Shown: positions 4,325-26,464 of the stretch, one piece after another | How positions within the stretch are numbered: the first letter of the stretch is position 1 | Layout: every line of letters starts with the position of its first letter | NCBI GenBank assembly: GCA_030426125.1 | Contig: JAUHZB010000002.1 | Span: forward strand, 3,633 to 67,632 | Direction: 5' to 3' | Source: a bacterium | GTDB taxonomy: Bacteria > Patescibacteriota > Saccharimonadia > Saccharimonadales > AWTP1-31 | Length of the DNA: 64,000 nucleotides | The notes under the pieces: model-generated | Databases searched by the model: none | Told to the model about the DNA's origin: nothing | Seen by the model: only the letters and a program-made list of their open reading frames with translations | Position numbers and translations under genes: made by a program

Positions 4325-6028
4325 TTAAGACTTACTAATAACTTTTCTGAGTTTCGGTAAGGCTGCCGACATTGCTACTGTACTTAGTATGGCTGTGGCG
4401 AACAATACTGTTATGGCCGATGAATCACCTGTCTCAGCTAGGTCGGTTGGTGCTACGGCAAGGCCAACTGGGTCAGATATTTCTCCGGTGTCTGGGTCAA
4501 GATCGAGTGGTCCGTTATCTACGATTGTGTATATTACTTCCAGCGCTGGGTCACCCTGATAGGTGGTTTCATTTATTGTAACGTCATCAAGGTTGCTGTA
4601 CTGCTCAGTGTTTGGATTGTATTTCCTGGCAATAACTTCCTCAGCTTTTAGGTTAGTAATGAAAGTTAAGGTAACTTCATTAGATTCGTTGGTAGTGTCG
4701 AAGCAGAAATCTACTAGGCCCATTGGGTATTGATAGCCAGCATCCTGAACAGCTAGAGCTACCTCTTTGACTGCAGTGCTACAAGTAATTGTGGTGCCGT
4801 CTGGTGTGGTAAGTAGTACCCGATTACCGTTTTCTGAATTTGGGAAGTTGGCGGTGTTTGAAGAGTTTTGGCTATCATCTGAAGTTGCCGATATATAGCC
4901 ATACGCTTCATTTGCAGCAATTGCTTCAGTTCCATCGCTGTTTAGATCTGCAGATATCCAGTCGTTCTCTTCATCATATTCTGCGCTTGGAGTTTCAACG
5001 CTCCAGGTTTCACCAAAATCATCGGATAAGAATAGACCACCGTTGTAACTGACAGCAGATATAACTTCTCCATCATCAGATATTGCGGTATCACTCCAAA
5101 AATTTAATTCCTCCGGATTTGGTGTTACTTCTGTATAGCTGTCGCCACCATCGTTTGAGGCGTAGACATTTTCTCCACCTGCATAATCTTCATGAGAGGC
5201 CACTATTATGCTTTGTCCATCTGCAGAAAGGTCATGGTAGAAATAATAAGCTTCATCGGCTGGGTCAAAAGGTGAAACGTCTTCCCAGCTACTACCACCG
5301 TTTTCTGATTTGTGTAAGGTATCGCCGTCATCTACGCCATTTTCACCACCAACTAGAATTGTTTCACCGTCGTCAGATATGGAGACCGATTTTAGGTCCC
5401 ATATATCTTCAATAGTACTCGAAGTCCAGCTGTTTCCACCGTTACTTGATATGTAGAGTTCACTATCGTCATTTTCTACTGCTGCTATTGTTGTTCCATC
5501 TCCAGAGACAACTACCTTGTCCCAGTCATCTGATTCGGCAGCTGCAGGCGTTATATCTTGCCATGTTCCTCCAGCATTAGCCGACATGAATAATTTACCA
5601 ACAGAACCTTCTGATTCTATATAATTAAGGCTATCATCACTCGATGCCACCATAACTTGGCCATTATTTGATACGTCAACATTTGTCCAATCGTGCCAGA
5701 TGCCGTCTTCTATATCTTCGGCAACATTTTCCCAGTTCAGGCCTGAATCAGCTGAAATATACAGAGGGCTTTCTTCGATCGGTTCACTTTCACCGCCGTT
5801 TATTACAGCTAGCATCATATGATTTCCCGTAGCCGAAATTGCAGCCGATACGTAATCGCCTCCTAGGCGATCAATGTCTTCTGGTCTTTGCCACTGATAT
5901 TCATTAGATGTTGCATATACAGTTGAGAAAATATCTGGCCTGGCTGCTAATACCATTGCGCCTACCGCGAGACTTGTTAATGTAACTTTAGATCTACTAG
6001 TTTTCTTAGAAACAGTTTTTGTTGCCAC
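4325..6028 (-). CDS. secreted BNR/Asp-box repeat surface protein with LAETG cell-wall sorting signal
   Basis: GTG start preceded by AAGGGG. N-terminal signal/anchor. Six S-x-D/N-x-G-x-x-W/Y Asp-boxes (SADSGLNW, SANAGGTW, SSNGGNSW, SENGGSSW, SNDGGDSY, SDDFGETW). The C-terminus has LAETG (nt 4427-4441), then a hydrophobic helix and a KLRKVISKS tail. Confidence 0.75.
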   Translation of the reverse strand: MATKTVSKKTSRSKVTLTSLAVGAMVLAARPDIFSTVYATSNEYQWQRPEDIDRLGGDYVSAAISATGNHMMLAVINGGESEPIEESPLYISADSGLNWENVAEDIEDGIWHDWTNVDVSNNGQVMVASSDDSLNYIESEGSVGKLFMSANAGGTWQDITPAAAESDDWDKVVVSGDGTTIAAVENDDSELYISSNGGNSWTSSTIEDIWDLKSVSISDDGETILVGGENGVDDGDTLHKSENGGSSWEDVSPFDPADEAYYFYHDLSADGQSIIVASHEDYAGGENVYASNDGGDSYTEVTPNPEELNFWSDTAISDDGEVISAVSYNGGLFLSDDFGETWSVETPSAEYDEENDWISADLNSDGTEAIAANEAYGYISATSDDSQNSSNTANFPNSENGNRVLLTTPDGTTITCSTAVKEVALAVQDAGYQYPMGLVDFCFDTTNESNEVTLTFITNLKAEEVIARKYNPNTEQYSNLDDVTINETTYQGDPALEVIYTIVDNGPLDLDPDTGEISDPVGLAVAPTDLAETGDSSAITVLFATAILSTVAMSAALPKLRKVISKS

Positions 6029-6102
6029 TTCTTTATTACCCCTTAAATAATCTTTAGCTTAACTATACCTATAATCGAGGCTTAGCACAAGCTTTATTGT
6101 GA

Positions 6103-7188
6103 CTAAGATTGTCTTAATTGGTCCTGCCTATAAAACAGAGTCGACAGACGCATCCGATAACTTCCATTACTTCTTCTGAGATAGTCAAAAGATGGGTCTA
6201 GCTGTTCCTTTGCGGTAGCCATTAAAGTTACATCACTGGGAATTATTTCCCCTTGAGCTACTTTGCCTATCGCGGCACAAATTTCCAGTTGGCGTGGTTT
6301 TTGTATTTGAGCTATTTGATGCGGCTGGAAATGTTCTAGTAATTCCAAAGCTATCAATAGTCTATCTACTTGCTTATAGGGTGTGGCGTTGGACAATATT
6401 TTAAGATCTTCTCTAGTGTAGACAACTCCCGGATAACGCTGATGCACTAGGCCGTGTGGTTTAGATATAGTCGATAGTAGCCCGATTATATTATCAGCAC
6501 TGACATCTACGGACTGGTCTGGTGTTTTAGTAGTCAGATCAGCATAGGCAGTGTCTAGTACAATTTTGTGGCCGGCTTCAACGAACTGGTCCCACTCTTC
6601 TTGGTCGTGCCAGTTGCCATCTATAGCGCTGGGGTTGGATACGAACCAAACTCGGCCATCTAGCGGTTCACCGGCTTCAGATAGTGATGGCGCCATGTCT
6701 ATACGATCTTTTGTTAGACCAACAGACTCTGCCTGACTGACGTAGTCGTGGTAATCACCTTTAATTATGCCGAGTCTGGTCATTTCTCCTTTGCCAACCC
6801 ATCCAGCCATTAGACGCAAGATCCCATCGGTTGCTCCGTGGGCTGTTGGGTATCGATGCTCAAAAGTAGATAATCCTGGGAACAGCGCTTCATTGCGATT
6901 TGTGATTCGCTCAATGATTGGTTCGTGTAGCGCTAAAAACTCTACTTTACCCGCAGTAGTAGGTAGCGTTAGATCTCTAGCAATACTAAAGCCACCTTCT
7001 TCCAGTAGTTCGCGGGCCTCTGCTTCCGAAGATAGTGGATTAAAATGCTTGGAATAATGTAAGCCTTCTAGAACTTCAGTGACTTCATTAAGCTGATAGC
7101 TAAGGAATGTTGGATTTAATTCACTAGGGTCGACTACTAATTCTGGTTCCTGCTCTGGACTACCCATATCTTTAACTGGCTGCCCCAC
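6103..7188 (-). CDS. class I/II (fold-type I) PLP-dependent aminotransferase-like protein
   Basis: Motifs in canonical order: FVSNPSAIDG (NPxNPTG-like), VLDTAYADL (D.aY) and LSTISKPHGL (S.SK PLP-lysine). The start is uncertain (GTG 7188 or ATG 7167). Confidence 0.6.
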   Translation of the reverse strand: MGQPVKDMGSPEQEPELVVDPSELNPTFLSYQLNEVTEVLEGLHYSKHFNPLSSEAEARELLEEGGFSIARDLTLPTTAGKVEFLALHEPIIERITNRNEALFPGLSTFEHRYPTAHGATDGILRLMAGWVGKGEMTRLGIIKGDYHDYVSQAESVGLTKDRIDMAPSLSEAGEPLDGRVWFVSNPSAIDGNWHDQEEWDQFVEAGHKIVLDTAYADLTTKTPDQSVDVSADNIIGLLSTISKPHGLVHQRYPGVVYTREDLKILSNATPYKQVDRLLIALELLEHFQPHQIAQIQKPRQLEICAAIGKVAQGEIIPSDVTLMATAKEQLDPSFDYLRRSNGSYRMRLSTLFYRQDQLRQS

Positions 7189-7212
7189 TTAGATTATTGC
7201 TTCTAGAGAGTC

Positions 7213-7881
7213 TCATAGATAGCTCCTTTTACCGGGGGCCTTCTTTCGTTTTATAGTGCTGGTCTCTTTCTTGCAGGTTTTACATCTGCCACATTCAATT
7301 GGCTTACCATCAGCGTAGTGAGGGGTTCGACAGGACCAAGTTAGAATTGCTAGATCTTCCGGTATAGTTTTGTATACTTCGTGCTTGAACAAGTCTTTTT
7401 GCGGGTATTCTTTTATTCTGGCGCTATGGTCTTCCTCTTCGGGATGAAAGGCGTTATGGACTCGTTTCGCACGCATTACCGATTCGGTGACACCAAGCTC
7501 AAAGTCGGTGGCTGTGGCTGCTATGACCACTTTAGTGATACTGTCGTCACGGGAAGTCATGTAACCAGAAATAAAGCTAATTATTTCAACATCGTAGATA
7601 AATTTTTTGCCGAAGTGAGGCAAAGCAATAGTTGATTCAGTATAGGAGAAGGGATGGTCTACATGCTTCTTCATATATTCAAGGATTTGTTTAATAGCCA
7701 TTGCTTCAGCTCTCCAACGAGCTTCCAGGTTTTTTATATGGATATGGTGAACCATTACTTCACCGTATTGATCGGGATTGTGCAATACATGCCAGAGGGC
7801 GGCGGTTGAATCAATGCCACCAGAAAACATTACTAAGGTGCGTTTTTTATCAGTCTTTTTAACTAACCTTTTTTTAGCCAT
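7213..7881 (-). CDS. QueC-like PP-loop ATP pyrophosphatase
   Basis: N-terminal SGGIDST PP-loop. The C-terminal LTWSCRTPHYADGKPIECGRCKTCKK matches the QueC zinc cluster (TWSCY...CGRCDSC). The central region diverges from QueC. Overlaps the upstream gene by 8 nt. Confidence 0.6.
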   Translation of the reverse strand: MAKKRLVKKTDKKRTLVMFSGGIDSTAALWHVLHNPDQYGEVMVHHIHIKNLEARWRAEAMAIKQILEYMKKHVDHPFSYTESTIALPHFGKKFIYDVEIISFISGYMTSRDDSITKVVIAATATDFELGVTESVMRAKRVHNAFHPEEEDHSARIKEYPQKDLFKHEVYKTIPEDLAILTWSCRTPHYADGKPIECGRCKTCKKETSTIKRKKAPGKRSYL

Positions 7882-8521
7882 TAACTTCCCTCTTATTTAT
7901 AGCTAGATTATACAGGAGTTGATCAGATAGTGTTCCGTTTTCAAAATAATCTAAAACTAGTTGGCCGCAGTTCTGGGCAACGTAGCTAAGGCTTTGCTCG
8001 TGGTTTGAAGTTTCAGTTTCTAGGGCGTATACAGCGCCATCAAGAATAGCATCGGTTGGTGAATCTAGCACATCTTCAGTAGCTGAATAAAAACAAAGTA
8101 CCCTCTCAAACAAAGACCGATCTACTCCGTTCATATAGCTTGCCAACAAATCTGATGAGCTAACAAGGTTTGGTAGTCGTTGACTGGTCCTAGGGTTATG
8201 GAAATTATAGGGATCAATTTTTGTGGAGGCTATTGCTATTCTATTTATACTACCTGGGGTATTAATGAGGTGACTTAGTGCTGTCTTTCCGCCGTCACTT
8301 AGCCCCAGAAGGTCTACTGTAACTTCCTCTGAATGGTTTTCTATCTCGGCGCTAGTTTCTTCAAATCTTTCTTGGTAGTCACTGCCAGTAGGGTCAATGC
8401 TTTTAGGGATGATTGTTAGGTTTGGCCTGGACCATAACTTAGGTATTTGGTCCTGTATTTCAGGTGTGCCATCAAAAGTTTTGAATAAGTATACTAGCCT
8501 CTCGTTCGTCCGGTCAGTCAT
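7874..8521 (-). CDS. alpha/beta-hydrolase-like protein (putative serine hydrolase)
   Basis: 215 aa with a nucleophile-elbow-like GLSDGG after a beta-strand (VTVDLLGLSDGGKTAL). Asp and His candidates lie downstream. Weak call. Confidence 0.35.
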   Translation of the reverse strand: MTDRTNERLVYLFKTFDGTPEIQDQIPKLWSRPNLTIIPKSIDPTGSDYQERFEETSAEIENHSEEVTVDLLGLSDGGKTALSHLINTPGSINRIAIASTKIDPYNFHNPRTSQRLPNLVSSSDLLASYMNGVDRSLFERVLCFYSATEDVLDSPTDAILDGAVYALETETSNHEQSLSYVAQNCGQLVLDYFENGTLSDQLLYNLAINKREVNG

Positions 8522-15398: not shown

Positions 15399-16214
15399 TC
15401 AAGGCATACTTAACAATACCGCTTGATAATGGGAGCAATCATCTGCTTTAATATATGGCTTTTTTCCTGAAGCAAGCTTGCAGTCACAAGTCCATCCAGA
15501 AGTACTAATTGTGACATTATGGCGAGCGTTATCGCCATTGACGCTATATTCGTTAACACCTGTTTTGAATACCCGCTCTTCAACTAGGTACCGCAAGGCT
15601 TTACTAAACAATTTGTCCGCTGAAATAAACCTATCTGAACTGATGTAGTTATTTGCTAGTTTTGCGACATCTAAAGCAACTCGCCTGTCGAGTTCGTTAT
15701 AGTATTTTCGATTTTCAAGAGCTATTTGTATTATTCTGGATATATAAATACGGTTAGACTCATTTATTTGAAAGACTATTACATCTTCTCGTTTTAGGAT
15801 TTCTACAGTTAGATCATTGCTAAAGATGCTACTAACACTCGCTAGTAAATCATTGCCAGAATTAATGTATTTCTTCGCTAGCGTAGAAAAGCTATCCGAT
15901 AGCAGCTGCATTTGACCAATCTCATCGATATATAACAGTTCATTTGCTTTTATTCTTTGTAAATCAACAAAACTATAGTTGAGAAATCCATCAATAACAA
16001 AGAATTTTCCAACTTGAAATTTGCCATGTGTATTTGTGCGAGCGAGCCTGATTACTTGGCCTTCAGATGTGGTGATATCGAATCCTATACGAGTACCATT
16101 CTGTCTCAGTTCCTTCGTTACCATGCCTCTTGTTGGCTGTGTGGTGTTGGTAATGTGCTCGAAGATTACAGTGCTTTTCCCTGACTTCGGCGCACCAGTT
16201 ACAAGTATTTTCAT
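15399..16214 (-). CDS. THEP1-type P-loop NTPase fused to a C-terminal SWIM zinc finger
   Basis: Walker A is MKILVTGAPKSGKST. Walker B is LLYIDEIGQMQL. The C-terminal W-T-C-D-C-x14-C-S-H (C243, C245, C260, H262; nt 15429-15488) is a canonical CxC...CxH SWIM pattern. Confidence 0.65.
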   Translation of the reverse strand: MKILVTGAPKSGKSTVIFEHITNTTQPTRGMVTKELRQNGTRIGFDITTSEGQVIRLARTNTHGKFQVGKFFVIDGFLNYSFVDLQRIKANELLYIDEIGQMQLLSDSFSTLAKKYINSGNDLLASVSSIFSNDLTVEILKREDVIVFQINESNRIYISRIIQIALENRKYYNELDRRVALDVAKLANNYISSDRFISADKLFSKALRYLVEERVFKTGVNEYSVNGDNARHNVTISTSGWTCDCKLASGKKPYIKADDCSHYQAVLLSMP

Positions 16215-16232: not shown

Positions 16233-16895
16233 TTGACCTGCTCTTATGATAAAATGCAACGCATGATTCATGTTAAAGCCCTAGATGTAAATAAAGCGTG
16301 GCGAGAAATACTCATAAAGCTACTAAACGATGGCGGTAAGACTGGGAATGATAAATATTTGCGGGACGAGTTTGCTGTAATTGAGATTGATGACCCAGCA
16401 GTTATTCCTGCGGACAAACTATTTCCCATGCTACAAAAAGATCTCGATGTAATAAACGAATACATTCACAGCGGAAACAATGAGAAAGATGTAGTGCACG
16501 AGTGGACAAAACTTTATTATCACCGTGCGTTCGATGAGCCAAATTCACAAATAGAATTTCTTATTAAAAAGCTCGATCCTGAATGGCCCAAAGGTGAGGC
16601 ACAGATATCTATGTGGGACAAGAACGTTGATCAGCATCAAGAAATATCGCCCTGCACCCAAATCATTTGGGCGCGCATAAAACATGGCAAGCTGGAGTTA
16701 CACGTCCATGCAAACTCATCAGACGCTTATAAAAAGCTGCTTATGAATATGCTTGAGTTTATCTCGCTTCAGCATTATATTGCAGAAAAAGTTGGTATCC
16801 CCATTGGGAAGTATGTTCATGCACTGGATTCTTGTCATTTGCACACGAAAGATGTAGACAAAATTAATGAGATAAAAGGACAACTAGCATACTAG
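16233..16895 (+). CDS. minimal thymidylate-synthase-fold protein (ThyA-like, archaeal-size)
   Basis: ISPC(141)TQIIWARIKHGKLELHVHANSSDAYKKLLMNMLEF...HALDSCHLH aligns with ThyA [37 protein letters not shown]...GGDTHLY. It is about 210-220 aa versus about 264 aa for ThyA. The start is ambiguous (16233, 16254 or 16263). Confidence 0.6.
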   Translation: MTCSYDKMQRMIHVKALDVNKAWREILIKLLNDGGKTGNDKYLRDEFAVIEIDDPAVIPADKLFPMLQKDLDVINEYIHSGNNEKDVVHEWTKLYYHRAFDEPNSQIEFLIKKLDPEWPKGEAQISMWDKNVDQHQEISPCTQIIWARIKHGKLELHVHANSSDAYKKLLMNMLEFISLQHYIAEKVGIPIGKYVHALDSCHLHTKDVDKINEIKGQLAY

Positions 16896-16930: not shown

Positions 16931-18139
16931 ATGAATACAGAGGCGTTACTCCCTGGATTGAATCATACGGTAAGAGGTTCTGAGTGCGCGCCCGAAATAA
17001 CCGAAGATTATCGCGAAACACTAAACAAACTAGTTCTTACACACCAAAATGGAGTAACCCATTTTTTGGGTGGTCCACTCGATCTGGATGACGACAAAAA
17101 AGTGTGGCTTTCTCCTGTTGGGGTTGATGACGGCGAGACATACTCATACTTCCAGTTAATCTACGTAAATACAGACCCACTTGAATTGCAAGATGATCCA
17201 GCATCAGTTCCTGCTTCTCTGCTTGAAGTTGATGAAGCTGGTTACAAACTTACACCTCATGATCACCCAGGGTATACCCAGTTAATGAATCAATTTTCGG
17301 GGAAAATGAAGCAAGTTTTGGTTCGTCATTGCAATAGTGGGATGGCATATTACCCTCGAGCAATAACACCAACTCTTGATAAGATGACTATAGATGCTCA
17401 CTTGGATCGTGTTGTTTCGGTACTTGGGATAAGAGAACCTGAAGTTAGCATTACTCTGAGCAAGCCATCTGATGCTGAAGAAATTGACTTGAGTGCAAAC
17501 GTATTGCGCGCCACACACGCAAGGAAATACGCCTTTCGTGGTGCCGAAGTTCATTCATATGGTCTAGTGTTAGATGACGACCCTTGGAAGTATTACGAGG
17601 TGTTTACCCCCCACCCTGTTGAGGATATGCCAAAAGAAGATGTCTTGCTTCGTGTAGACTCAGGTTGTGATATTGGTCAAATCTTTGATGATAGAGGCTG
17701 TGATTGTCGTGAGCAACTGCATACCGCATTGTCTGAAATACAAGACATCGGAACTGGTGCGGTGATTCACATTCCTGCTCAAGATGGACGAGGCTTTGGT
17801 GCGGCTACCAAAATGGAAACTGAGGGTATGAAACGAGGAATCGAGGTCGCGACTAACCTTGGAAATGCCGTACCATATGACACTATAACAGCAGCACAAG
17901 TACTACTTGGTGATGAGTTTGATATCCGAACCTATTCTGGCGCAGGAAGAATACTCAGCATGCTCGGTATCCGTTCAGTTTTCCTTCAAACAGATAATCG
18001 GCTTAAAGCCGAAGGGCTTTCTGAGGGAGGTATATCTGTTACACGTAAGCCGACAAATACAACTGGCGTAAGAGGTGCCGAAAACCACATAGCCGCAAAG
18101 CATAGGCACAACGACATATACTATGGCGATGAGGATTAG
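16931..18139 (+). CDS. GTP-cyclohydrolase-II-like protein with ~190-aa N-terminal extension (URC1-like architecture)
   Basis: Residues about 190-400 align with RibA. LLRVDSGC246-x10-C257DC259 has the same spacing as the E. coli zinc triad. Also DGRGFG and LGIRSVFLQTDN..K. The N-terminal 190 aa are not RibB-like. Confidence 0.65.
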   Translation: MNTEALLPGLNHTVRGSECAPEITEDYRETLNKLVLTHQNGVTHFLGGPLDLDDDKKVWLSPVGVDDGETYSYFQLIYVNTDPLELQDDPASVPASLLEVDEAGYKLTPHDHPGYTQLMNQFSGKMKQVLVRHCNSGMAYYPRAITPTLDKMTIDAHLDRVVSVLGIREPEVSITLSKPSDAEEIDLSANVLRATHARKYAFRGAEVHSYGLVLDDDPWKYYEVFTPHPVEDMPKEDVLLRVDSGCDIGQIFDDRGCDCREQLHTALSEIQDIGTGAVIHIPAQDGRGFGAATKMETEGMKRGIEVATNLGNAVPYDTITAAQVLLGDEFDIRTYSGAGRILSMLGIRSVFLQTDNRLKAEGLSEGGISVTRKPTNTTGVRGAENHIAAKHRHNDIYYGDED

Positions 18140-18151
18140 GATTAGGCTGTC

Positions 18152-19033
18152 ATGACTATAGATGCCACAACTACCTTTAGCTCTCCAGGAATCGAGAAGA
18201 TTCGCAATCGTTGGGTTGAAACTGATTCAATGGCGGGTGTAGGAATTGATCCTGACATTGACAAGATACCGCCCGAGATATGGGGAGAGATTGGTCTGGA
18301 AGGAGACACGGCCGATGCGATTTTCCTTTTCAACAAGATGGTTATTGATGCGACCGTAGATCACGCAGTAGACTTTAAAGTAAATTCAAACTTCTTTCAG
18401 GGTGAACTAGGTCGCAAGGCGCTTGCCACTACTTTCGCATACCTCAAAGAAGAGTACCCAGCAGTCCTAAGAGTTTGCGACGGCAAATTTGCTGACGTTG
18501 GGCATACTGCAGACAAAATTGCTGAAGAAGTATTTGGAGAACTCGATGCGGATGCGGTTCTTTTGAATCCATATTTGGGGTTCGATGCAATACGACCCTT
18601 TACAGACTGGAAGGATAAATTATCAATACTATGCGTCAATACCTCTAATCCATCAGCATCAGAAGTTCAGGGCTTGCCTCTTGCTGGTGGTGTTCCGCTT
18701 TGGAGACACATACTAGAGCTTGGTCTCTCAGACTGGAACTATAATCAAAACGTTGTGCCAGTACTAAGCGCAACTCATGCTAGTAATCTAGAAGGTATAC
18801 GAGACGAAATTGGCGATGTGCCAGTTGTATTGGCGGGCGTCGGGTCTCAAGGTGGCGATCTTGGAGTAAGCGTACCCCACTGCCTGGACGATAGCGGGTA
18901 TGGACTTATGATTAGTGCTTCAAGAGCAATCCTCTACCCTGAGCGAGAACCTGGCGAAAGTCTAGGTGACGCATCAAGGCGGGCTGTAGTTAATTTGAAA
19001 CAAGCTATAAATAATGCAAAAGGAAATGTATGA
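18152..19033 (+). CDS. type-2 orotidine-5'-phosphate-decarboxylase-like protein
   Basis: GVGIDPD, FKVNSNFF, and the catalytic-type D-x-K-x-x-D in VCDGKFADVGHT. At 293 aa it is typical of long (type 2) PyrF. Confidence 0.6.
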   Translation: MTIDATTTFSSPGIEKIRNRWVETDSMAGVGIDPDIDKIPPEIWGEIGLEGDTADAIFLFNKMVIDATVDHAVDFKVNSNFFQGELGRKALATTFAYLKEEYPAVLRVCDGKFADVGHTADKIAEEVFGELDADAVLLNPYLGFDAIRPFTDWKDKLSILCVNTSNPSASEVQGLPLAGGVPLWRHILELGLSDWNYNQNVVPVLSATHASNLEGIRDEIGDVPVVLAGVGSQGGDLGVSVPHCLDDSGYGLMISASRAILYPEREPGESLGDASRRAVVNLKQAINNAKGNV

Positions 19034-19671
19034 GCGAATTTATAGTTACTGCTGAGTCTAGAGAGGCGGAAATGTGTAGGCTCATGGACAGGCATTTGAC
19101 TATGGATCGAGTTTTTGTACTGCTTCTTGGTCCATCTGCTACTGGCAAATCTACGCTAATCCGGGAGATGAATGCTCGATCAGGTGATATTAGCTTTGAG
19201 TATGTAAAACCAACCATGACACGACCCAATCGACCTGGTGAAGTCGATAAAGTGTCTGTATCAGATCAGGAGTTTGATGAGTTAGAGCAATCTGGAAAGT
19301 TCGTTGTTGTTAACGAATTATACGGCGTCAGGTATGGAACGCCATTAGAAGGCATATTGACGCCATTAGCTCAAGGCTCAACTCCCATACTTGACTACCC
19401 TATCGATACGGTAGACCAACTAGAGCGTAGTGAGTATGACATGTTGCGCTTCTATGTGTATCCTGGCTCCACGGAAGAATGGGCATCACGTGTGGAATCT
19501 AGTGGCAGAAATACAGACGGTCGTCTTGAGCGGGGTCTCAAGGAGCTCGGCTCTTTAGCAATTGGAATTGAGCACCCTGCTATTGATGTAAGTATTGTGA
19601 ATGCTGACGGGCAGGCAAACGCAGCAGCCTCAGAGATTCTTTCCGTATTAAGCAGAATTCAACAATCATAG
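19030..19671 (+). CDS. guanylate-kinase-fold nucleoside-monophosphate kinase
   Basis: P-loop LLGPSATGKST. TMTRPNRPGEV compares with HTTRQPRPGEV, and YGVRYGTP with GNYYGTS. ATGA overlap with the upstream gene. Confidence 0.6.
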   Translation: MSEFIVTAESREAEMCRLMDRHLTMDRVFVLLLGPSATGKSTLIREMNARSGDISFEYVKPTMTRPNRPGEVDKVSVSDQEFDELEQSGKFVVVNELYGVRYGTPLEGILTPLAQGSTPILDYPIDTVDQLERSEYDMLRFYVYPGSTEEWASRVESSGRNTDGRLERGLKELGSLAIGIEHPAIDVSIVNADGQANAAASEILSVLSRIQQS

Positions 19672-19686
19672 TTGTTTATTCTTTGG

Positions 19687-20061
19687 TTACTCTTGTCGTG
19701 CTTGGTATTGCTCTGCACTTCTAAATGTCTGTATTGCACCTGGAACGATTCGATAAGCAGCTCGGTCTTCTTGTTTATAAATCATAGGTGTGCCAAGTAT
19801 ACTTTCACACGATCCACATGCCAACGCTCCAGCTTCTTTGATAGTAGTAGCATCTACTTCTCTCTGCTGATCTACCAATTCAGGTGGCCAGACAATTCTG
19901 TCGGCGTAGCACCTTAGCAACCGACCAGGGCCGTCTTTTTGATAAACCATTGTAGGTTCATCGCAGTTTTCGCAAGCTATGTATAGAAACTTAGAAGGAC
20001 CACCACGAGCCTTCGAGAATCTATCCTTAGTTGGTTTGAACTTCTGTCCAGGGAATTCCAT
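19687..20061 (-). CDS. zinc-ribbon-like hypothetical protein
   Basis: ATG 20061 (MEFPGQKF) lies 7 nt after a TATAAT. It has two Cys pairs (CENC ... CGSC). Convergent with the kinase gene, with 15 nt between the stops. Confidence 0.5.
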   Translation of the reverse strand: MEFPGQKFKPTKDRFSKARGGPSKFLYIACENCDEPTMVYQKDGPGRLLRCYADRIVWPPELVDQQREVDATTIKEAGALACGSCESILGTPMIYKQEDRAAYRIVPGAIQTFRSAEQYQARQE

Positions 20062-20486: not shown

Positions 20487-20561
20487 TGGCTCCCGGGGTC
20501 GGATTCGAACCGACAACCTCGAAGTTAACAGCTTCTTGCTCCACCGTTGAGCTACCCGGGA
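20487..20561 (-). tRNA. tRNA-Asn (anticodon GUU), CCA encoded
   Basis: Manual cloverleaf. Acceptor TCCCGGG/CCCGGGA. D-arm GCTC-AACGGTG-GAGC. Anticodon loop CTGTTAA. T-arm GTCGG-TTCGAAT-CCGAC. Discriminator G plus CCA. Confidence 0.9.
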
Positions 20562-20663: not shown

Positions 20664-21209
20664 TTAAACAAGATCAAACATTGTTAGCCAACCTTTGGCA
20701 GAAATTGGGTATTTAGGATCTCCCTGCTTCATGCCCTCGACAACCGTCTTTTTATCCACCCACTGAAGCTGTTCTACTTCTTCGGGTTGTGCTTTGAACT
20801 TTTCTATCGGCCAGTCACAGTAAATCCGGTAACCTTGGGCTAATCTGGAACCTACCCCTGCTTTGTACAGTACTTGCTTGGCCTTAATTAGCTTAAAGTC
20901 ATCGAGTCCAATTTCTTCTTGAACTTCCCTTGTTGCTGTATCGAGGTAGCTATCGTCATTTTCTACCGTGCCCTCAACAGCACAGGTCCAAAGTCCAGGA
21001 CCTAGACGCTTTTTTAGTGAACGTTGTTGGAGTAGTACCTGCCCTTTTGAGTTTTCTATCCAGACACAGATAATCTTCCAAGTATATTCATCTGTTAATT
21101 GTGAGCGCCTTACTTTTTTAATAGTTTTTCCGTTTGGATCAACCACAGCAACTAATTCGTTGCTATCACTAGGGTTGTTGTCTATTTGCTTGGTTTTGTC
21201 GCTACTCAT
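20664..21209 (-). CDS. NUDIX hydrolase
   Basis: Nudix box GTVENDDSYLDTATREVQEEIGL (Gx5Ex7REUxEExGU). Confidence 0.8.
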   Translation of the reverse strand: MSSDKTKQIDNNPSDSNELVAVVDPNGKTIKKVRRSQLTDEYTWKIICVWIENSKGQVLLQQRSLKKRLGPGLWTCAVEGTVENDDSYLDTATREVQEEIGLDDFKLIKAKQVLYKAGVGSRLAQGYRIYCDWPIEKFKAQPEEVEQLQWVDKKTVVEGMKQGDPKYPISAKGWLTMFDLV

Positions 21210-25891: not shown

Positions 25892-26464
25892 TTAGTATTC
25901 CGTCTTTATATATCCATCATCACTGCGTATGATGTTGCAACTCGACCATAAGCCTCGCCCCTCGTCTTCGGCTTGCTGCTGGTAGCCTTTAAAAGGTTCA
26001 ATCCGCGAGAACGGAAAGCTGGTATAGGCGAACCCGTAACCTTGTTTAATAATTTCAGCATTAACGAAAGTACCCTCAGGCAGATAAACATATCGTAGTA
26101 ATCTTTGGTAGCGGTCACGATTGGTGTTGATTGGATCAGCTTCTAGTCTGACTAAGTTGTCTGCTATTAGATTCCGAGTAAACTCACTGGCTGCTTGTCC
26201 AAAACACTGAACTTGTTTACGGGGATCTTTGGTCTCCGGAGTATCAACTCCGATAAGGCGGACGGTTTCCTTGGTCCCAGCCATGTCCACTACTATGGTA
26301 TCGCCGTCAACAACTGAGATTACGTTATATAGTCCTGGCTGGGTTTGCTCAGCTGTCTTGGCAATCGGCTCGATTAAGCCGGTTTGCTGAAGTAAGGCGA
26401 CTACTAATAGTAATAAGGCGCCAATTAGAATATTAGTTTTCTTTTTTGTTAGTAGTTTAGCCAT
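25892..26464 (-). CDS. secreted thermonuclease (staphylococcal-nuclease fold)
   Basis: Signal/anchor, VVDGDTIVV, VRLIGVDTPE, and RYQRLLRYVY..G..VN.E.IKQGYG. Confidence 0.85.
   Translation of the reverse strand: MAKLLTKKKTNILIGALLLLVVALLQQTGLIEPIAKTAEQTQPGLYNVISVVDGDTIVVDMAGTKETVRLIGVDTPETKDPRKQVQCFGQAASEFTRNLIADNLVRLEADPINTNRDRYQRLLRYVYLPEGTFVNAEIIKQGYGFAYTSFPFSRIEPFKGYQQQAEDEGRGLWSSCNIIRSDDGYIKTEY

Follow-up and report, generated by a model that had tools for sequence, protein, structure and literature searches.

GTP cyclohydrolase II (GCH II, RibA) starts riboflavin synthesis and requires a tyrosine (Tyr105 in E. coli RibA) for the complete reaction. In URC1/Urg1, a GCH II-like protein with a pyrimidine rather than a flavin association, the GCH II-like domain follows an N-terminal extension of about 190 aa. 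RibA acts in two steps, with AFRPP as the formylamino intermediate, and formamidases are also known as separate enzymes (PMC9478397). The zinc motif of RibA is CX2GX7CXC and its pyrophosphate release residue is Arg128 (PMC10366380). The URC pathway acts on uracil-derived nucleotides by steps that are uncharacterised (PMC7530994), and URC1 is accompanied by URC4 in both bacteria and fungi (PMC3869809). Here we describe a GCH II-like gene in a 64,000-nt stretch of a Saccharimonadales genome (GenBank contig JAUHZB010000002.1, positions 3,633 to 67,632; termed the window, to which all positions below refer). The encoded protein is a GCH II-fold zinc protein that keeps the pyrophosphate-release Arg; throughout its family the Tyr is systematically missing and the base environment is re-modelled. 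Its gene belongs to a conserved five-gene module of nucleotide-metabolism genes, and a role outside riboflavin synthesis is the most likely reading. The gene and its parts are as follows.

16931..18139, plus strand: GCH II-like gene, open reading frame (ORF) with ATG start, 402 aa
16931..17500, plus strand: N-terminal domain, residues ~1-190, conserved across the long-form family, no Pfam family
17501..18139, plus strand: GCH II catalytic domain, residues ~191-402, aligns with RibA residues 1-196
17666..17707, plus strand: zinc site C246-x2-G249-x7-C257-x-C259, codons checked, equivalent to RibA C54/C65/C67
17810..17833, plus strand: helix K294-M-E-T297-E298-G-M-K301, E298 at the RibA Tyr105 position, codons checked
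17921..17929, plus strand: D331-I-R333, equivalent to RibA D126 and R128, codons checked

Pfam PF00925 (GTP_cyclohydro2) matches residues 234-372 only (E 1.8e-21, 76.9 bits against a cut-off of 23.3). The NCBIfam RibA/RibBA models also match the C-terminal part only and score far below their cut-offs (TIGR00505, 65.5 bits against 205.85; NF001591, 70.1 against 148). The AlphaFold2 (AF2) model of the protein (pLDDT 87, pTM 0.88) was matched by Foldseek to E. coli RibA 2bz0 with an E value of 1.9e-7 and TM(target) of 0.80. Pairwise HMMER alignments were made to three solved GCH II proteins (E. coli 2bz0, M. tuberculosis 4i14 and H. pylori 4rl4; the E. coli RibA sequence used is identical to 2bz0). 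A MAFFT L-INS-i alignment combined the RibA GCH II domains of the three species with 12 long-form and eight short-form relatives, the short forms being proteins of 230-300 aa that carry the clade signature without the N-terminal domain. A hidden Markov model (HMM) was built from this alignment and 218 relatives were aligned to it. C246, C257 and C259 (codons at nt 17666, 17699 and 17705) align with E. coli RibA C54/C65/C67 by both methods, so that the RibA zinc site proposed for C246-x10-C257-x-C259 in the initial annotation, which was made from the sequence alone, is confirmed down to the codons. The match of DGRGFG to RibA EGRNIG, also proposed there, was recovered by HMMER and MAFFT as well.

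The initial annotation had placed a Glu at the catalytic Tyr by an ungapped alignment. This stands in all three pairwise HMMER alignments, in which the Tyr105 position is Glu298 (nt 17822-17824), and the gaps in the MAFFT alignment leave the position without a Tyr. There is an 11-residue insertion after this position relative to RibA; T297 falls at the RibA A104 position and K301 at the Q108 position. Among 121 long forms the Tyr105 position is occupied by E in 110, L in four and V in three; among 76 short forms it is L in 49 and E in 17. Tyr was found in none of the 197 clade members. The Glu co-varies with Lys at the RibA Q108 position (110/121 long forms), and Leu co-varies with Gln at that position in most short forms. 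It had been anticipated that a gapped alignment might restore both the catalytic Tyr and the catalytic Arg: the Tyr was not restored, and the Arg, as R333, is conserved together with D331.

Both R333 and D331 are in fact invariant in the family, as are the three zinc cysteines and G249. Other residues kept at RibA-equivalent positions are R49, Q70, R94, K101, D113, T114, T149, N151 and K154, in addition to D126 and R128. Clade-wide substitutions relative to RibA are H51→D (197/197), E53→G, D58→Q, E92→D, A104→T and N118→A. Since the former residues are kept clade-wide, the phosphate/pyrophosphate machinery and the metal site are under selection; the clade-wide substitutions indicate that the surroundings of the base and of the Tyr are unlike those of RibA. 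The window protein thus resembles RibA (2bz0; PF00925) in fold, CX2GX7CXC zinc site and phosphate/pyrophosphate residues, and it differs from RibA in Tyr105→Glu, in Q108→K, in the H51, E53, D58, A104 and N118 substitutions listed above, in the insertion, in an extra 190-aa N-terminal domain, in its partners and in having no riboflavin gene context.

The N-terminal domain has the invariant residues G47, W59, P62, K106 and R132. It folds confidently when modelled separately with AF2 (pLDDT 81). Residues 1-237 gave no Pfam match even at E<=10, although the HMMER filters may hide matches above about 0.1. The domain model matched no PDB fold (best E 6e-3, TM<=0.36) and its sequence matched no PDB sequence. 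Three possible origins were tried and rejected. A diverged RibB was rejected as there is no Pfam match and no match to 3,4-dihydroxy-2-butanone 4-phosphate (DHBP) synthase in PDB, and comparison by hhalign rejected both a duplicated GCH II domain and a relationship to the small zinc protein encoded in the same module (orfZ, below). The initial annotation had seen no RibB motif in the first 190 aa, in agreement with the absence of any RibB-like fold or Pfam match, and the protein is unlike bifunctional RibBA, which carries an N-terminal DHBP synthase (RibB) domain.

The other four genes of the module lie next to the GCH II-like gene:

16254..16895, plus strand: ThyA-like protein, short archaeal type, 213 aa, ATG at 16254 (PF00303, E 2.5e-10)
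18152..19033, plus strand: orotidine 5'-monophosphate (OMP) decarboxylase (OMPDC) paralog, 293 aa (TIGR02127 pyrF_sub2)
19030..19671, plus strand: guanylate-kinase-fold nucleoside monophosphate (NMP) kinase, 213 aa (PF00625, E 2.1e-13)
19687..20061, minus strand: orfZ, 124-aa four-Cys zinc protein (C30, C33, C82, C85; YQKDGxG motif)

The ThyA-like gene is followed after a 35-nt gap by the GCH II-like gene, after 12 nt by the OMPDC paralog and then, with a 4-nt overlap, by the kinase; the orfZ gene is convergent with this operon. Six-frame ORFs of 46 related loci were searched with the window proteins and the loci were dereplicated to 39. In the 27 long-form loci the OMPDC paralog adjoins the GCH II-like gene in 25, and the kinase is present in 22, orfZ in 21 and the ThyA-like gene in 12. 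The two long-form loci without the OMPDC paralog are L020, which is cut by a contig end, and L033, in which the gene is at the contig start and no other module gene follows in 6 kb downstream. Considering all 39 loci, orfZ is found in 27, almost always adjoining the GCH II-like gene and often in two copies that flank the set (two copies each in L001, L004, L010, L025, L028-L032 and L034), and the ThyA-like gene adjoins the GCH II-like gene in 14, including the Woesearchaeota contig. The ThyA-like gene belongs to the module in Saccharibacteria, L031 and Woesearchaeota (L039), three lineages that are far apart. Gene fusions were also found. Protein P0186 (782 aa) joins the GCH II-like, OMPDC and kinase parts, P0167 (551 aa) joins the GCH II-like and OMPDC parts, and OMPDC-kinase fusions occur in L001 and L034 (Gottesmanbacteria and a Chlamydiae metagenome-assembled genome, MAG). 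Clustering of 806 neighbour ORFs gave no further widely recurrent family. It was concluded that the GCH II-like protein functions together with the OMPDC paralog, the NMP kinase and orfZ, and often with the ThyA-like protein. A literature search on GCH II in these lineages and on such fusions found no description of the module. Within the GCH II superfamily, the protein is most fittingly placed in a new subfamily that carries a new N-terminal domain.

The OMPDC paralog passes the PyrF equivalog model TIGR02127 (142.2 bits against a cut-off of 110.6). Compared with Leishmania OMPDC 3qw3, it keeps the K...DxKxxD...TSN...QGG...SR motifs, so that the catalytic tetrad and the uracil/phosphate-binding motifs are intact. 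It belongs to a clade of its own with at least 51% identity, followed by a sharp fall to 35-38% against ordinary PyrF, and it occurs alongside a second, ordinary OMPdecase in L008/L022, L038 and L006. The kinase scores equally on the Gmk and PhnN models, below the cut-off of both. Compared with yeast Gmk, it retains the P-loop and the NMP-phosphate residues R38/R41/E44; in place of the guanine-binding S34 and E69 it has P and V, and in place of Tyr50 and Tyr78 it has K and R. The ThyA-like protein is closest to the methanogen-type model TIGR03283 (67.5 bits against a cut-off of 174.55). Compared with B. subtilis ThyA, it retains the catalytic Cys, a His and the Asn by which uracil is specified, and three phosphate-binding Arg are replaced (G/E and N). 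The orfZ family (110-130 aa) has four invariant Cys and a YQKDGxG...R.Y.DRI motif; none of its 42 homologues falls in any Pfam family and none in NCBIfam. Weak but repeated matches to the C-terminal domains of RIG-I/MDA5/LGP2, to Mis18/Yippee and to eS27 suggest that orfZ may be a two-CxxC zinc domain and a candidate nucleotide binder.

The first search for relatives of the GCH II-like protein found 80 homologues with E values down to 1e-259, of which the full-length family comprised 74 members, from close to distant; full-length members form about 70 clusters at 50% identity. This match set is far beyond chance. The homologues are annotated at their sources as "hypothetical", "GTP cyclohydrolase II" or "ribA". 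The carriers are Saccharibacteria/Saccharimonadales, Gottesman-, Shapiro-, Staskawicz- and Chisholmbacteria and other Patescibacteria, together with Dependentiae, one Chlamydiae MAG, one Woesearchaeota archaeon and a few MAGs labelled Proteobacteria. The module itself is present in Saccharibacteria, other Patescibacteria, Dependentiae, Chlamydiae (contig L034) and Woesearchaeota. Hydrophobic starts that resemble signal peptides, unexpected for cytosolic nucleotide enzymes, were seen in GCH II-like and orfZ homologues of Dependentiae-like or unassigned MAGs (P0072-P0074, gene 1418-2632 of L004/L005; P0253; P0255; P0259). A phage or defence origin was rejected: PHROG and PADLOC hold no family for the GCH II-like, OMPDC or orfZ proteins, IMG/VR has no relatives, and INPHARED has RibA-domain matches only. 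The locus with the triple fusion (L010, positions 6001-8349 of a JGI contig of 472,865 bp) lies a few kb from genes for a phage-type portal, a prohead protease (S78) and a PIN protein, and near radical SAM and methyltransferase genes.

Two variants of the module were found. The short-form loci of Staskawiczbacteria and relatives combine orfZ and the short GCH II-like gene with a cytidylate kinase (PF02224, 106 bits). The Parcubacteria-type loci (L006, 1-9343; L009, 6113-10970; L026, 4113-11569) combine a long GCH II-like gene with an ArgG-like+MGS fusion, PfkB and a divergent OMPDC-like protein that has DCKRSE in place of DxKxxD. A PyrC-like amidohydrolase is encoded in L006 and L026 as well. 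In L006 there are, in addition, a DDAH/ADI-like gene and PyrD/PyrE/PyrF; PyrB and CarAB were not found in the L006 stretch. The Parcubacteria-type cluster may hint at an unusual entry into pyrimidine synthesis. In a complete Saccharibacteria chromosome (CP064992.1, L008/L022) the module is found 4 kb away from an ordinary pyrD-pyrE-pyrF set, and purine de novo genes are present. Many genes of this chromosome, including those of the ThyA-like protein and the kinase, are split into two ORFs. Decay of the module there was rejected because many unrelated genes are split as well, and assembly indels are likelier.

What reaction does this protein catalyze? The loss of the Tyr, the N-terminal domain of no known family and the conserved set of nucleotide-metabolism genes make a job different from that of RibA likely, and the proposal of a non-canonical function in the initial annotation gains support from the clade-wide residue statistics, the low NCBIfam scores, the conserved synteny and fusions, and the absence of RibH and of a flavin mononucleotide (FMN) riboswitch. 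Neither the base nor the outcome of the RibA reaction is expected, because the Tyr is changed to Glu and the positions of RibA H51, E53, D58, A104, Q108 and N118 are changed too. Our favoured, though tentative, proposal is a nucleoside triphosphate (NTP)-dependent zinc hydrolase that acts on a pyrimidine-type nucleotide within a UMP/dTMP-centred pathway. The NTP would be bound in the conserved RibA phosphate pocket (R241, R287, K294, T354, N356 and K359) and pyrophosphate would be expelled via R333. A water bound to the Cys3-zinc site would make a single hydrolytic attack on the base, presumably a pyrimidine of the uracil/cytosine type, and would either open its ring or deaminate it at an amidine carbon. 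The NMP that results from this step or precedes it would be common to the kinase, the OMPDC paralog and the ThyA-like enzyme, as part of a salvage or synthesis route centred on UMP/dTMP in host-dependent microbes. What we infer here is the use of an NTP, the release of pyrophosphate, a pyrimidine as the substrate and the flux direction. A single hydrolysis would fit the Tyr loss because the RibA chemistry is in two steps via a formylamino intermediate. A pyrimidine substrate is favoured by the intact uracil-binding motifs of the OMPDC paralog, the uracil type of the ThyA-like protein, the absence of guanine-recognition residues from the kinase, the cytidylate kinase of the short-form loci and the pyr-type neighbours in Parcubacteria-type loci (PyrC-like genes in L006 and L026; PyrD/PyrE/PyrF in L006). 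The carriers belong to nucleotide-scavenging lineages, and Patescibacteria lack nucleotide synthesis (PMC12455944).

Several points weigh against a pyrimidine hydrolase. GTP is the ancestral substrate and the commonest kinase partner has the guanylate-kinase fold. There is no chemically complete scheme for a tight coupling to OMPDC or for an OMP source without PyrE, and no PyrD, PyrE or PyrC was found in the window. As Glu and Leu occupy the Tyr position in different members, the residue at this position is not a universal catalytic group. The ThyA-like protein is without the three phosphate-binding Arg, which makes its substrate uncertain too.

In the main rival explanation GTP would still be the substrate: pyrophosphate and AFRPP would be released after the first hydrolysis, as in archaeal GCH III, or the diamino product would be made. 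The product would then be passed to the OMPDC-paralog barrel, where an Amadori-type step, for instance, could lead to a pterin-like one-carbon carrier used by the ThyA-like protein. Tyr-less GCH II variants of Streptomyces release the formyl intermediate, and to our knowledge the carrier lineages have no folate synthesis. The ThyA-like gene in the operon and the Gmk fold of the kinase would fit as well, as would the known course of the GCH II reaction through AFRPP and the existence of separate formamidases (PMC9478397). A precedent for a pair of GCH II and a barrel is found in Chlamydia, in which RibA and TrpF bypass FolE/FolQ (PMC4161248). In this pair as in the module, a host-dependent bacterium combines GCH II with a phosphate-binding (beta/alpha)8 barrel, but the barrel of the module is an OMPDC paralog with an intact decarboxylase tetrad instead of TrpF, and the GCH II-like protein is not a canonical RibA. 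The formylaminopyrimidine-forming cyclohydrolases (archaeal GCH III and the Streptomyces variants) show the single hydrolysis without deformylation that is expected on Tyr loss. However, archaeal GCH III has a different fold, these enzymes work with a formamidase to supply riboflavin and F420 synthesis, and the window clade has Glu or Leu plus many further active-site changes. No formamidase, RibD, RibH or folate genes were found near the module. With the residues around the base changed clade-wide, the guanine-binding residues of the kinase gone, and a barrel that keeps all OMPDC catalytic and uracil-binding motifs and passes the PyrF equivalog cut-off, we consider GTP an unlikely substrate. 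The base chemistry could instead have been lost altogether, leaving an NTP pyrophosphatase (dUTPase/dCTPase-like) or a nucleotide-sensing regulatory subunit of the OMPDC-kinase pair. RibA Tyr105 mutants keep GTP pyrophosphatase activity only, and R333 and the phosphate-binding residues are kept here. T-even phages (T4 gp56-gp42-gp1) and Dut-ThyA-Tmk provide the classical triad of pyrophosphatase, ThyA-like enzyme and NMP kinase, with which the module would share the logic of NTP to NMP conversion, C5 modification and re-phosphorylation. The likeness is one of working principle only: a ThyA-family protein and an NMP kinase are paired with a pyrophosphate-releasing enzyme in both, but the pyrophosphatase folds are unrelated, and the module adds the OMPDC paralog and a zinc protein and has no relatives in viral collections. 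This explanation is improbable, since about 197 sequences from different phyla share the zinc Cys, Q262 and D331 without exception, which argues for retained metal-dependent chemistry, and since the OMPDC paralog and orfZ would be left unexplained.

A bacterial URC1 orthologue, which would open the ring of a uracil nucleotide in the first committed step to urea and 3-hydroxypropionate, was suggested by the N-extended architecture and by the pyrimidine-type partners. The link to URC1-type homologues drawn in the initial annotation found no support. The N-terminal domain matches no Pfam family, including the URC1-type N-terminal domain, which we take to be PF12471 (GTP_CH_N), and URC4 (DUF1688-type), urea amidolyase and uracil phosphoribosyltransferase (UPRT) appear in none of the Pfam lists, which cover the neighbourhoods. 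The comparison with URC1/Urg1 covered two features, the N-terminal domain family and the URC4 partner in the neighbourhoods, and the window protein shows neither. Its partners (the OMPDC paralog, NMP kinase, ThyA-like protein and orfZ) are different, the kinase and ThyA-like protein being biosynthetic, and a nitrogen-harvesting catabolism would be odd for minimal-genome epibionts. URC1 function is therefore very improbable. As for an ordinary, merely divergent RibA that starts riboflavin synthesis, the PF00925 score is above cut-off and some homologues are annotated as ribA or GTP cyclohydrolase II. It is nonetheless hardly credible: Tyr105 is missing in the whole clade, no NCBIfam RibA model comes near its cut-off, the conserved partners have nothing to do with flavin synthesis, a tblastn search with a verified lumazine synthase (RibH) query found none in the 64-kb window or in about 48 related loci, and Rfam detected two tRNAs only in the window, without an FMN or other riboswitch.

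Returning to a pyrimidine-nucleotide hydrolase, a wider and doubtful extension is that the five-gene module may constitute an unrecognised pyrimidine-nucleotide pathway of genome-reduced, host-dependent microbes (candidate phyla radiation (CPR), Dependentiae, Chlamydiae and DPANN), built around a GCH II-fold zinc enzyme with a new pyrimidine-NTP reaction. One candidate reaction would be the conversion of CTP or dCTP to UMP or dUMP, ammonia and pyrophosphate; another would form or open an orotidine/uridine ring. The reaction would be coupled to the OMPDC paralog, a dedicated NMP kinase, a putative four-Cys nucleotide-binding protein and an archaeal-type ThyA. If true, the carriers would obtain U and T nucleotides by a route of their own. 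Scavenged nucleotides are thought to sustain Patescibacteria, Dependentiae, Chlamydiae and DPANN archaea. Annotation pipelines split this tightly conserved, fusion-linked set into "ribA", "pyrF" and "gmk". The labels hide a coherent pathway and wrongly suggest riboflavin and de novo pyrimidine capacity in metabolic reconstructions. The reaction, once identified, would be a new activity in the GCH II superfamily, would explain a second OMP decarboxylase family and give a function to a new zinc-protein family, and might reveal a dependency that is specific to lineages of epibiotic and intracellular bacteria.

The following features surround the module in the window:

15399..16214, minus strand: NTPase_1 (THEP1-like) gene, divergent neighbour (PF03266, E 4.2e-27)
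20490-20561, minus strand: tRNA gene, just downstream of the module
20664-21209, minus strand: Nudix hydrolase, just downstream of the module
25892-26464, minus strand: staphylococcal-nuclease (SNase) homologue with an N-terminal hydrophobic segment, secreted

The NTPase_1 match covers residues 1-162 of 271 only, and the Cys/His-rich C-terminal tail (WTCDCKLASGKKPYIKADDCSHY) resembles a small zinc finger. An NTPase_1 gene adjoins the operon in 6/39 loci, five of them of Saccharibacteria/Patescibacteria type (among which L012 is labelled Paenibacillaceae) and one from an Alphaproteobacteria-labelled MAG (L033). Its association with the module is lineage-specific only. Nudix genes are also found near the module in L001 and L004. 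The other genes within about 7 kb encode an LD-carboxypeptidase, histidine phosphatase, peptidase S51, SRAP, Nudix, subtilase, SmpB, glycosyltransferase and SNase, and these, like the NTPase_1 gene, are unrelated to the module. Promoter and terminator scans were at background level. The secreted SNase homologue is compatible with a nucleic-acid scavenging lifestyle.

A tblastn search of plasmids for URC1 returned RibA/RibBA-type genes and, in addition, one "hypothetical protein" of the Agrobacterium Ti plasmid NZ_KY000057.1 (L047, 4809-5381). This 190-aa protein has approximately 35% identity to the window GCH II domain. Several Agrobacterium Ti plasmids carry its gene, next to an MFS transporter and hypothetical genes, which makes it a further GCH II-like gene that lacks an annotation and stands outside riboflavin operons.

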